Origin: a virus
Length of the DNA: 12,544 bases
Strand: one strand, 5' to 3'
UHGV virus genome: UHGV-0329897
The position numbers were made by a program, and so were the translations under genes. The notes under the pieces are model-generated. The model did no database searches. It was not told the DNA's origin and saw only the letters and a list, made by a program, of their open reading frames with translations. Shown in pieces: positions 6,548-11,985 of the stretch. Each line of letters starts with the position of its first letter. The stretch's first letter is position 1.

Positions 6548-7245
6548 AAAACATCGCCGCACAGATGGTTAACTTTGACCGTGAGCAGATGCGCCGGATC
6601 GCCAACAACATGCCGGAACAGTACGACGAAAAGCCGCAGGTACAGCAGGTAGCGCAGATCATCAACGGTGTGTTCAGCCAGTTACTGGCAACTTTCCCGG
6701 CGAGCCTGGCTAACCGTGACCAGAACGAAGTGAACGAAATCCGTCGCCAGTGGGTTCTGGCTTTTCGGGAAAACGGGATCACCACGATGGAACAGGTTAA
6801 CGCAGGAATGCGCGTAGCCCGTCGGCAGAATCGACCATTTCTGCCATCACCCGGGCAGTTTGTTGCATGGTGCCTGGAAGAAGCATCCGTTATCGCCGGA
6901 CTGCCAAACGTCAGCGAGCTGGTTGATATGGTTTACGAGTATTGCCGGAAGCGAGGCCTGTATCCGGATGCGGAGTCTTATCCGTGGAAATCAAACGCGC
7001 ACTACTGGCTGGTTACCAACCTGTATCAGAACATGCGGGCCAATGCGCTTACTGATGCGGAATTACGGCGCAAGGCTGCCGATGAACTGACCTGTATGAC
7101 AGCGCGAATTAACCGTGGTGAGGCGATCCCTGAACCAGTAAAACAACTTCCTGTCATGGGCGGTAGACCTCTAAATCGTGCACAGGCTCTGGCGAAGATC
7201 GCAGAACTCAAAGCTAAGTTCGGACTGAAAGGAGCAAGTGTATGA
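6544..7245 (+). CDS. P: Replication protein P (DnaB helicase loader), 233 aa
   Basis: Lambda-type P translation (MKNIAAQMVNFDREQMRRIANNMPEQYDEKPQVQQVAQIINGVF...). Start overlaps the O stop (ATGA). Confidence 0.95.
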   Translation: MKNIAAQMVNFDREQMRRIANNMPEQYDEKPQVQQVAQIINGVFSQLLATFPASLANRDQNEVNEIRRQWVLAFRENGITTMEQVNAGMRVARRQNRPFLPSPGQFVAWCLEEASVIAGLPNVSELVDMVYEYCRKRGLYPDAESYPWKSNAHYWLVTNLYQNMRANALTDAELRRKAADELTCMTARINRGEAIPEPVKQLPVMGGRPLNRAQALAKIAELKAKFGLKGASV

Positions 7246-7605: not shown

Positions 7606-8046
7606 ATGAAAAAACTAACCTTTGAAATTCGATCTCCAGCACATCAGCAGAACGCCATTCAAGCTATCCAGCAAATCCTTCCAGACCCAACCAAACCAAT
7701 CGTAGTAACCATTCAGGAACGCAACCGCAGCTTAGACCAGAATCGAAAGCTTTGGGCTTGCCTTGGTGACGTCTCTCGTCAGGTTGAATGGCATGGTCGC
7801 TGGCTGGATGCAGAAAGCTGGAAGTGCGTTTTTACAGCAGCATTAAAGCAGCAGGACGTTGTTCCTAACCTTGCCGGGAATGGCTTTGTGGTAATAGGCC
7901 AGTCAACCAGCAGGATGCGTGTAAGCGAATTTGCGGAGCTATTAGAGCTTATACAGGCATTCGGTACAGAGCGTGGCGTTAAGTGGTCAGACGAAGCGCG
8001 ACTAGCTCTCGAATGGAAAGCGCGATGGGGAGATCGGGCTGCATGA
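7606..8046 (+). CDS. ninB: NinB (Orf-family recombination mediator), 146 aa
   Basis: ATG at 7606 with SD GAGGGAAG gives MKKLTFEIRSPAHQQNAIQAIQQILPDPTKPIVVTIQERNRSLDQNRKLWACLGD... The track start at 7588 is a TTG. Confidence 0.9.
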   Translation: MKKLTFEIRSPAHQQNAIQAIQQILPDPTKPIVVTIQERNRSLDQNRKLWACLGDVSRQVEWHGRWLDAESWKCVFTAALKQQDVVPNLAGNGFVVIGQSTSRMRVSEFAELLELIQAFGTERGVKWSDEARLALEWKARWGDRAA

Positions 8047-8570
8047 CTATCAAATCAAATACGCCAGCACACGACAAGGACTGCTGGCAAACGCCGCTTT
8101 GGCTTTTTGATGCACTGGATATTGAGTTTGGATTCTGGCTGGATTCGGCAGCGAGCGACAAAAATGCTCTGTGCGCTCACTGGTTAACTGAGGCCGACGA
8201 CGCGCTAAATTCTGAGTGGATAAGCCACGGTGCAATCTGGAATAACCCACCGTACAGCAATATCAGGCCGTGGGTGGAAAAAGCCGCTGAGCAGTGCATA
8301 CAACAGCGACAGACGGTAGTGATGCTTGTGCCAGAGGATATGTCTGTCGGATGGTTCAGCAAGGCTCTGGAGAGTATTGACGAAGTTCGCATCATCACTG
8401 ATGGACGGATTAATTTTATCGAACCATCGACAGGGCTGGAGAAGAAGGGAAACAGCAAAGGTTCCATGCTGCTGATTTGGCGACCGTTCATCAGTCCTCG
8501 ACGGATGTTTACTACCGTATCCAAAGCGGCATTGATGGCGATCGGGCAGGGCGTCAGGAGGGCTGCATGA
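8043..8570 (+). CDS. Phage orphan DNA N6-adenine methyltransferase (phage T1 Dam-like family), 175 aa
   Basis: ATG at 8043 overlaps the ninB stop (ATGA). Contains the N-terminal DxxCWQTP motif and the NPPY catalytic motif (WNNPPYSN), occupying the slot where lambda has ninC. No adjacent restriction endonuclease gene. Confidence 0.8.
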
Positions 8571-8743
8571 GACGACAGCGGCGAAGTTTCACCGACATCA
8601 TCTGCGAAAACTGCAAATACCTTCCAACGAAACGCTCCAGAAATAAACGCAAGCCAATCCCAAAAGAATCTGACGTAAAAACCTTCAACTACACGGCTCA
8701 CCTGTGGGATATCCGGTGGCTAAGACATCGTGCGAGGAAATGA
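8567..8743 (+). CDS. ninE: NinE (58 aa)
   Basis: ATG at 8567 overlaps the methyltransferase stop; translation [58 protein letters not shown]. The track ORF starts at an upstream alternative codon. Confidence 0.8.
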
Positions 8744-9087
8744 CAATGGATTATTCACAGTTAAGTGATTTTGAAATTAACCGAATGGTAGGAGACATAA
8801 TTTTTAAAGGCCTTTGGGCATGTAAGCCTGAAACATCAGGGAATAACACCAACAAATGGTATTACGGAAATGCCGATGTAAGTCTTGAGCCATTAAACCC
8901 TTTGCCTGACTACTGCAATGATCCGAGCGCTTCATGGCCGATTATTGAGAAATACAGGATTTCTATCTTAGACCAGTTAACTGAATGGTGTGTGGATGCA
9001 AAAGGCGTAAGCCCAATATTTGATACCAGACCTCTCCGCGCCGCCATGATTGTCTTTCTCCTGATGCAGGAGGCCAATAATGCTTAG
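8740..9087 (+). CDS. Hypothetical nin-region protein (115 aa), function unknown
   Basis: ATG at 8740 overlaps the ninE stop (ATGA), with a second ATG at 8746 and GAGGAAA upstream. Translation [36 protein letters not shown]...; no motif I can assign. Confidence 0.6.
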
Positions 9088-9274
9088 CCCATCTCAATCC
9101 CTTCAATACCTGAAAGGAAGCATAGAGCGGGCTTCAATGTGCACAGAGTGGATTCTATCTAGGTTTAGCGCATACAGAAGATTGCCGGTAAAGGGCATGC
9201 CAAGCAAGTCGATGCTGCATATGCAAAAGAATGCGCGCTGGAAGGTATGGCGAGAACACAGGTTATCTGGCTGA
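9080..9274 (+). CDS. NinF-like N-terminus (about 18 codons) running out of frame into ybcO-like 3' sequence; likely a chimeric product
   Basis: Strong SD AGGAGG 7 nt before the ATG at 9080. The first residues [18 protein letters not shown] resemble NinF; the remainder is R/K/W/H-rich, as expected for wrong-frame translation of the ybcO-like remnant. Confidence 0.4.
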
Positions 9275-9297
9275 AAGAGGGGGTTATTAAGGCGTGA
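9169..9297 (+). pseudogene. 3' remnant of a ybcO-like gene (rusA-upstream gene) lacking a start codon
   Basis: This frame reads [42 protein letters not shown] and stops overlapping the rusA GTG start (GTGA), but has stops at 9160 and 9166 and no start codon. The C-terminus matches my recollection of DLP12 YbcO. Confidence 0.4.
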
Positions 9298-9656
9298 ATA
9301 CCTACAGCATCACATTACCCTGGCCTCCGAGCAATAATCGCTATTACCGCCATAATCGCGGGCGCACGCACGTCAGCGCAGAGGGGCAGGCATACCGCGA
9401 TAACGTCGCCCGAATCATTAAAAACGCAATGCTGGATATCGGCCTGGCTATGCCTGTGAAAATCCGCATTGAGTGCCACATGCCGGATCGCCGTCGCCGT
9501 GACCTGGATAATCTGCAAAAAGCCGCTTTTGACGCACTCACTAAAGCAGGTTTCTGGCTGGATGATGCTCAGGTCGTTGATTACCGCGTTGTGAAGATGC
9601 CTGTTACCAAAGGTGGGAGGCTGGAACTGACCATCACCGAAATGGGGAATGAATGA
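9294..9656 (+). CDS. rusA: RusA Holliday-junction resolvase (120 aa)
   Basis: GTG start at 9294; [120 protein letters not shown] matches RusA of prophage DLP12 as I recall it. Confidence 0.95.
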
Positions 9657-9793
9657 TGTTTGAGTTTAATATGGCAGAACTTCTTCGCCACCGCTGGGGG
9701 CGTCTGCGCTTATATCGTTTCCCCGGTTCTGTTTTGACCGATTACCGAATACTGAAGAATTACGCCAAAACCCTGACAGGAGCAGGAGTATGA
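9653..9793 (+). CDS. ylcG: YlcG-like small protein (46 aa)
   Basis: ATGATG at 9653 overlaps the rusA stop; hand translation [46 protein letters not shown], stop 9791-9793. Below the ORF-track size cutoff. Confidence 0.7.
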
Positions 9794-9878
9794 AGTCAGA
9801 GATAACAATCAACTAATACTGTTTTGTTGATTTTTGCTTGTAATTGGCGTTCTGGTCTGATTTTTGTGGAGTAAGTTG

Positions 9879-10262
9879 ATGCGTGATATTCAGATGGTTC
9901 TTGAGCGTTGGGGAGCGTGGGCGGCTAATAATCATGAAGATGTGACCTGGTCGTCCATTGCCGCCGGTTTTAAGGGATTAATTACTTCAAAAGTAAAATC
10001 TCGCCCGCAATGTTGTGACGATGACGCGATGATTATTTGCGGGTGCATGGCCCGTCTGAAAAAGAACAACAGCGATTTGCACGATTTATTAGTAGATTAT
10101 TATGTAGTCGGTATGACATTCATGTCACTGGCAGGTAAGCATTGCTGCTCTGATGGTTATATCGGGAAAAGGTTACAGAAGGCTGAGGGCATAATTGAAG
10201 GGATGTTAATGGCATTAGATATCCGGTTAGAGATGGATATCGTTGTTAATAACTCTAATTAA
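9879..10262 (+). CDS. quuD: Q-type late-gene antiterminator QuuD (127 aa)
   Basis: ATG at 9879 gives [71 protein letters not shown]..., matching DLP12 QuuD as I recall it. The track ORF starts at an upstream GTG. Confidence 0.85.
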
Positions 10263-11960: not shown

Positions 11961-11985
11961 AACCCGCCACTGAGCGGGTTTTTTG
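11961..11985 (+). terminator. Orphan intrinsic terminator in the nmpC upstream region
   Basis: 7-bp stem aacccgc/gcgggtt with a 6-nt loop followed by T6 on the plus strand; no plus-strand ORF precedes it. Confidence 0.45.

Follow-up and report, generated by a model that had tools for sequence, protein, structure and literature searches.

What occupies the interval between ninX and rusA in this lambdoid genome, and how did it come to be there? The window (the whole stretch of DNA that was analysed, 12,544 nt of UHGV virus genome UHGV-0329897) carries the lambdoid genes O, P, ren, ninB, a Dam-type methyltransferase gene, ninE, and ninX, then the interval in question, followed by rusA, ylcG, and an 82-type Q gene (quuD), with a porin gene on the opposite strand downstream of quuD. 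An earlier note had proposed that recombination here joined a lambda-like ninF to a DLP12-like ybcO-rusA block, leaving a hybrid or a pseudogene. Alignment with ninF and with the gene upstream of rusA, as that note suggested, placed the boundaries at 9142/9143 and at about 9207/9208, and positions 9080 to 9297 accordingly read as a three-part mosaic scar in which a piece of ninF, an orphan segment (here called X), and a remnant of ybcO precede an intact rusA (Table 1). We put the probability at about 0.85 that this scar was left by two non-homologous joins, one after the other, in the nin region, which is dispensable, with a hybrid open reading frame (ORF) that would be functionless and a RusA protein that would still be made.

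Table 1. Features of the ninX-rusA interval and breakpoint sites in the window (window positions; in breakpoint sites a slash marks the break)
Feature	Position	Strand	Basis or remark
ninX (DUF2591), intact, P22-type ninX-ninF left module	8746..9087	+	Pfam PF10765, E 3e-16; PGAP NinX family (L001)
Ribosome-binding site AGGAGG, ninF-native, inside the ninX 3' end	9068..9073	+	Read from sequence
64-aa hybrid ORF (ninF codons 1-21, X, out-of-frame ybcO tail)	9080..9274	+	ATG start
ninF-derived segment, codons 1-21	9080..9142	+	P22 DNA homology ends at 9142
Orphan segment X, 65 nt	9143..9207	.	Unrelated to ninF, ybcO, or any protein family
Recurrent deletion breakpoint (hub), CCGGTA/AAGGGC	9190..9191	.	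Seven partners
ybcO (DUF1364, putative His-Me/HNH nuclease) 3' remnant, codons 68-96 and stop, startless	9208..9297	+	
GAGGGGG, likely rusA ribosome-binding site, 10 nt before the GTG	9277..9283	+	Read from sequence
rusA, intact Holliday-junction resolvase gene	9294..9656	+	NCBIfam NF007305; Pfam PF05866
Hub in P codon 33, CAGGTA/CAGCAG	6642/6643		Seven partners
Hub, CGATTA/CCGAAT	9744/9745		Four partners
Hub, CGGTTA/ACTGG	2312/2313		Two partners
Single-use TA sites	1254, 1487, 6314, 6684, 7015, 7025, 7922, 9018, 9165, 9265		

The left-hand part points to a P22-type parent. Residues 1 to 21 of P22 NinF match 9080 to 9142 at 16 of 21 positions (tblastn, E 5e-7), which bears out the description of a NinF-like start behind a strong Shine-Dalgarno sequence: the 64-aa ORF has its AGGAGG 6 nt ahead of the ATG, and between this ATG and the ninX stop there is an 8-nt overlap like that in ninX/ninF of P22. 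In the DNA alignment, the end of P22 ninX and the start of ninF agree with 9040 to 9142 at 93 of 103 nt (90%), homology ends at 9142, and many P22-like phages show 85 to 90% identity over 9075 to 9142. The parent is P22-type (ninX-ninF-ninG) rather than lambda-like, as had been supposed; lambda NinF as annotated starts VIDQNRSYEQ, and its match to the window is limited to 9114 to 9142. Relative to the P22 nin region (ninE-ninX-ninF-ninG), the window keeps the ninX 3' end, the ribosome-binding site, ninF codons 1 to 21, and the position of the ORF after ninX with an overlapping start, whereas it lacks NinF residues 22 to 58, which include the CxxC...CxxCC part, and ninG. No further remnants of ninF, ninG, or ybcO (including its 5' part) were found in the window.

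The right-hand parent had been named correctly. From 9208 rightwards the window is 99 to 100% identical to the DLP12/phage 82 module of Escherichia coli K-12 (ybcN-ninE-ybcO-rusA-ylcG-quuD), with YlcG and QuuD in the same order and a porin gene downstream, like nmpC in K-12. Residues 68 to 96 of K-12 YbcO match 9208 to 9294 at 28 of 29 positions (tblastn, E 2e-15), the 3' DNA of DLP12 ybcO differs at three positions within the first 11 nt from 9208 and is identical thereafter through rusA, and in about 3000 genomes DLP12-type ybcO DNA is 99 to 100% identical from 9208 or 9214 rightwards. In contrast to DLP12, the window contains only codons 68 to 96 of ybcO, without the N-terminal Cys/His-rich two thirds of the protein, and the ninE-ybcO part upstream is replaced by dam-ninE-ninX-ninF'-X. 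The remnant covers positions 62 to 92 of 92 in Pfam profile PF07102 at 18.2 bits, below the gathering cutoff of 29.9, and in a 100%-identical locus (L001) PGAP annotates 9208 to 9297 as a DUF1364 pseudogene ("incomplete; missing N-terminus"). The earlier note had taken a second frame over 9169 to 9297 for a startless ybcO-like tail with stops upstream and a GTGA overlap with rusA. Frame 3 is indeed open from 9169 to 9297, with upstream stops, no usable start, and a TGA that overlaps the rusA GTG at 9294; the likeness to ybcO holds for 9208 to 9297, and 9169 to 9207 is unrelated DNA, open by chance.

The proposed hybrid or pseudogene outcome is thus seen in a ninF 5' end and a ybcO 3' remnant that stand in different frames, the latter called a pseudogene by PGAP, and recombination did join non-homologous modules, at two junctions rather than one and with X between them. 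Homology is lost abruptly at 9142 for the P22-type parent and at 9208 for the DLP12-type parent, and both parents are identifiable elsewhere. Searches of 8600 to 9900 turned up neither a terminator-like or promoter-like site nor any Rfam family. Elsewhere in the window, Rfam Lambda_thermo (the cIII thermoregulator) matches 468 to 526 on the minus strand at 88.5 bits, in keeping with a lambda-like pL operon.

The start context of rusA is preserved, as had been claimed. The 39 nt upstream of its GTG, and positions 9255 to 9300, are identical to those in K-12; RusA matches NF007305 over residues 1 to 120 of 120 with 279.3 bits (cutoff, 200), and one RusA accession, WP_001099712.1, is shared by the window-identical locus L001 and K-12. 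The TGA of the hybrid ORF (9272 to 9274) lies 20 nt upstream of the rusA start; in DLP12 the ybcO stop overlaps that start. Judging from this layout, RusA is probably translated directly or by re-initiation after the hybrid ORF stop.

Segment X belongs to neither parent. A diverged part of ninF or ybcO was considered and rejected, as X shows no similarity in any frame to residues 22 to 58 of P22 or lambda NinF or to residues 1 to 67 of YbcO. In sensitive blastn searches, X was found elsewhere only after a truncated ninF in the Stx1 phages SH2026Stx1 and AU6Stx1 and in about 250 Shiga toxin-producing E. coli (STEC) genomes, at about 87 to 90% identity, with the Stx1-type match spanning 9114 to 9214 (L004, the SH2026Stx1 copy: 2001 to 2101). 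There it lies in unannotated DNA after ninE and is again preceded by ninF codons of about 12 to 21. Between the window and the Stx copy, 16 of the 105 aligned nt (9114 to 9218) differ, giving 8 to 10 amino-acid changes per frame in all six frames; with no frame showing conservative substitutions in this comparison and no family match, a remnant of some other protein gene was likewise rejected. These Stx1 phages thus have the same joint of ninF (codons of about 12 to 21) to X, and X in full (about 87% identity), in a different setting, without ninX or the ninF start and without ybcO-rusA on the right. In SH2026Stx1 (L004, 1960 to 2480), ninE is followed by a ninF fragment that lacks the first 11 or so codons, by X, by AT-rich unannotated DNA, and by a large reverse-strand hypothetical gene, an arrangement that reads as a second, independent use of the ninF/X scar as a module boundary.

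The hybrid ORF is probably translated, since it retains ninF's own ribosome-binding site and coupled start. Ribosomes finishing ninX would most likely start at the ninF ATG and read on through 21 codons of ninF, 22 of X, and 21 of ybcO out of frame, up to the stop at 9274, producing a basic 64-aa peptide, while the ybcO frame itself would be untranslatable. Might this peptide be a real, selected small protein, a NinF-derived variant useful to the phage lineage? The strong ribosome-binding site and the start coupled to ninX would fit such a role, as would the intactness of the ORF in 575 genomes, in viable phages, and in 64 of 64 ungapped IMG/VR and reference loci, where no stop codon interrupts it. 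RefSeq phage records call it "protein ninF" (ev207, ev099) or "hypothetical protein." The former name comes from similarity at the N terminus only. The ORF matches the NinF family profile phrog_672 (PHROG) at positions 1 to 22 of 58 (E 0.003), compared with 1 to 57 of 58 (E 2.7e-37) for intact P22 NinF, and no Pfam or NCBIfam domain was found in it. Of the cysteine cluster C21-x2-C24...C36-x2-C39-C40 of P22 and lambda NinF, only C21 is kept, and the sequence after residue 21 is unrelated, its last third being out-of-frame ybcO.

Polymorphism does not favor a selected protein either. In 43 haplotypes, obtained from the 64 ungapped loci, synonymous and nonsynonymous variants number 6 and 12 in the hybrid ORF and 4 and 8 in the ybcO frame of the same DNA, compared with 34 and 24 in rusA and 12 and 12 in ninX. 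The substitutions that separate the window and Stx copies of X change amino acids in every frame. The protein database contains many ORF variants with differing C termini, produced by frameshifts into the ybcO frame, IS interruptions, and deletion fusions, so that several truncated or fused versions occur naturally. One database entry, P0016, ends in DVYKRQ, the translation of a Nextera adaptor and thus an artefact in a public protein set; four others, P0017 to P0020, are complete ybcO genes in which frameshifts lead into the out-of-frame tail of the hybrid ORF. Given no sign of protein-level constraint and no family match beyond residue 22, the hybrid ORF is most likely accidental and its product without function; a selected protein seems to us quite improbable. 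That the ORF is conserved in related phages, which the earlier note had named as a point against its own reading, is true as identity by descent, without a signature of selection; the companion point, that the alternative-frame similarity might be coincidental, is contradicted by the tblastn matches.

A weak point for selection is the invariance of X, which has no variable site in the 43 haplotypes, whereas its flanks of 55 to 67 nt have 8 to 10 each. The search pattern, however, fixed 25 nt (9191 to 9215), including 17 nt of X (9191 to 9207); the other 48 nt should have yielded only about two singletons, and flank variation seems to be imported, so that the invariance is weak evidence of constraint. 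Most of the flanking variants are common to many haplotypes, as if they had been imported from homologous alleles of ninF and ybcO-rusA; X has no such alleles. The invariance of X is probably due to this absence of homologous alleles for exchange. In the same haplotypes, ylcG (9653 to 9793), within which hub 9744/9745 lies, has 6 synonymous, 16 nonsynonymous, and one nonsense variant, counts that suggest that the protein of this small annotated gene is under little constraint.

Far from being peculiar to one genome, the scar is fixed in a lineage that is widespread and counts plaque-forming phages among its members. The ninX-scar-rusA stretch is present at 98 to 100% identity in 575 of 5426 complete E. 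coli genomes, in 27 deposited phage records (among them ev207, ev017, mEp332, 2G7b, 1H12, and the PhiR phages obtained by induction of ECOR strains), and in no fewer than 80 IMG/VR contigs; the intact ybcO-rusA arrangement is found in about 3000 further genomes. An assembly or sequencing artefact, or a recent private mutation, can practically be discounted when 575 independently assembled genomes, 27 phages of several laboratories, and 80 or more IMG/VR contigs all have the identical junction. The same identity among these genomes, viable lambdoid phages, and contigs marks the scar as an old, fixed junction.

We therefore return to the two joins. In the first, a P22-type ninF would have been broken after codon 21 and attached to the unrelated DNA of X; since the ninF/X joint is common to Stx1-type phages, it is the older one and predates the split of the lineages. 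In the second, confined to the lineage of the window, X would have been attached to the final 29 codons of a ybcO of the DLP12/phage-82 type, importing the ybcO'-rusA-ylcG-Q(82-type) late-control module. As rusA keeps its own purine-rich ribosome-binding site and GTG, the resulting phage would make RusA while having lost NinF, NinG, and YbcO, and the dispensability of these lost genes would explain why many prophages and viable phages carry the arrangement unchanged.

In most respects this is a typical novel joint of lambdoid phages. Abrupt homology boundaries, joints in dispensable genes, and free exchange of the flanking modules are all seen here, and the sole unusual point is an exact, reused TA breakpoint (see below). 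Lambdoid mosaicism reportedly arises, in the model of Hendrix and Casjens, by illegitimate recombination followed by selection. Red-mediated homeologous exchange has also been described in lambdoid phage mosaicism (PMC2327257). Other boundaries in our data include two of the homology type. The Dam-type methyltransferase gene (7983 to 8570) is precisely absent in some relatives (L059, L075, and L077), and the boundary between its presence and absence, 8046/8559, has 12 shared nt (CAGGGCGGCATGAG-type ninB-stop/ninE-start). In the pL operon region, a 340-nt segment (1105/1446), the second of these and a common indel, is replaced by AGTA in at least ten related loci (L012 to L014, L027, L045, L057, L067, L078, and L094 among them). 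Downstream of the porin gene, the alignments of L007, L015, L018, L020 to L022, L036, and L108 all end at 11983, which indicates a shared mosaic boundary there.

The unusual point concerns a position inside X. A protein search returned proteins that fuse the part of the hybrid ORF encoded after 9190 to the first 33 or 47 residues of lambda P, and further fusions of this part to a cro fragment plus P residues 34 to 47 or to 61 residues of 434-type Cro. The contigs that encode them carry large prophage deletions whose right end is always 9190/9191, with joints reading ...GCCGCAGGTA/AAGGGC, ...CAGCCAGTTA/AAGGGC, and ...GGTTTGGTTA/AAGGGC; at the same place the window reads ...TTGCCGGTA/AAGGGC. An unbiased scan of IMG/VR and metagenomes, using a right-hand anchor with a non-window base 40 nt upstream, yielded four contigs, three from IMG/VR and one from a metagenome. 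In three of these the break falls precisely at 9190/9191, with three further partners, and the fourth breaks at another TA, 9165/9166. The partners of 9190/9191 are P codon 33, P codon 47, codon 61 of 434-type cro, window position 1487, two unrelated DNAs, and window position 9745. The last of these comes from a prophage that keeps the left side (CCGGTA/CCGAAT), a deletion of 9191 to 9744 that removes rusA; the segment 9191 to 9744 has no inverted termini, only TA is common to its two ends, and it contains rusA and ylcG and no transposase. A left-anchored scan of IMG/VR for rightward deletions from 9190 gave no matches, and neither did a scan of genome contigs. As common alleles, the cro/X and P/X joints were rejected, being absent from the 5426 complete genomes or present once.

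When all retrieved loci were aligned to the window and the surroundings of two more reused sites were scanned as well, the catalogue came to 19 distinct deletion joints inside prophages, ascertainment having begun at the scar. All 19 lie exactly at TA, with no N within 150 nt (unrelated contigs L006 to L008, L012 to L023, L026, L036, L041, L049, and L107 to L109), although TA makes up only 6.0% of the dinucleotides in the window. Counted conservatively, with joints that share a site treated as one observation, the 12 joints for which both parents are readable in the window reduce to four unconnected site groups, and the excess of TA has a P value of about 1e-5. One fixed end with many partners is seen at 9190/9191, at 6642/6643, and at 9744/9745, and all three pairings of 6642, 9190, and 9744 with each other were found. 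The sites share the context G-K-TA-M-C, which is loosely dyad-symmetric and often has CCG or CNGG close by. The homology-type boundaries in the same data (8046/8559 and 1105/1446) are not TA joints. Nearly all the TA-joint deletions remove O, P, or the N-cro region, a loss that is expected from selection for prophage inactivation; such selection does not explain the nucleotide-exact reuse of sites. An IS21-family element (TGTCACGAACGGTGCAATAGTGATCC...; IstA start MVTFETVMEIK) has inserted independently twice inside the scar, after 9193 (L024) and after about 9227 (L025), 34 nt apart, and both contigs end in the IS.

What could produce such joints? One possibility, which we offer tentatively, is that 9190/9191 is a DNA site cut or strand-exchanged by a TA-specific activity and that rejoining between such sites gives rise to prophage-inactivating deletions. 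The enzyme would be a nuclease, or a transposase-like or serine-recombinase-like protein, from the host, the prophage, or a co-resident element; it might act as a recombinase or as a nuclease that leaves TA overhangs and is assisted by a ligase, and the scar would hold the most used site. The seven partners at exactly 9190/9191, three of the four unbiased non-reference contexts breaking there, 19 of 19 joints at so infrequent a dinucleotide, the further exact hubs at 6642/6643, 9744/9745, and 2312/2313, and the hub-to-hub joints all favor it. So does the shared G-K-TA-M-C context, which would suit a dimeric TA-cutting enzyme or imperfect microhomology among a few favored repeats. Phage lambda nin5, also a nin-region deletion that the phage tolerates, offers a contrast: its endpoints fall in a 10-bp direct repeat, CACGAACCTG, whereas the prophage deletions described here share between TA and GGTA only and reuse exact hubs.

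Against such an activity, the sites fit none of the enzymes with which they were compared, and 9190/9191 itself lacks inverted repeats, target duplications, and any recombinase gene. Cleavage by E. coli topoisomerase I needs C at -4 (PMC9352719), and this fits two sites only. Quinolone-poisoned gyrase reportedly tends to cut before G (PMC6379681), and the TA sites do not match scission at such a position. Judged by site preferences as generally given, the sequences likewise do not support secondary sites of lambda Int, Hin/Gin-type invertases, or integrons, targets of IS630/mariner or IS200/IS605 elements, restriction sites of BstEII, RsaI, or HpaI, or RusA, RuvC, Chi-like sequences, or a type I-E CRISPR PAM. 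The crossover at an integron secondary site would be G/TT, and RusA cuts 5' of CC. Adjacent deletion mediated by an IS was rejected too, as no IS is left at any joint. Furthermore, each deletion allele is rare (0 or 1 in 5426 complete genomes), the survey of joints started from the scar locus, and the hubs share an imperfect GCCG...TA repeat, so that ordinary microhomology joining at a few favored repeats could explain part of the pattern. A literature search returned no description of TA-anchored prophage deletions. On balance, it is conceivable but doubtful that a TA-specific break-and-rejoin activity, rather than random illegitimate events, made these prophage-inactivating deletions, joining the left half of one site (2312, 6642, 9190, 9744, or a weaker site of the form G-K-TA-M-C) to the right half of another.

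The scar itself is ordinary and has already been flagged as a pseudogene by automatic annotation. Its own importance is small: it is a clean, datable example of the swapping of late-control modules inside dispensable nin genes. It also means that the "protein ninF" annotated in several RefSeq phage genomes would be the product of a chimeric pseudogene and that, in about one in ten complete E. coli genomes, this arrangement provides a phage-borne rusA with an unaltered start region. The TA joints could be of greater consequence: if prophage-inactivating deletions do reuse exact TA sites, a specific molecular mechanism would lie behind prophage decay and domestication, and it could be sought by genetic means.
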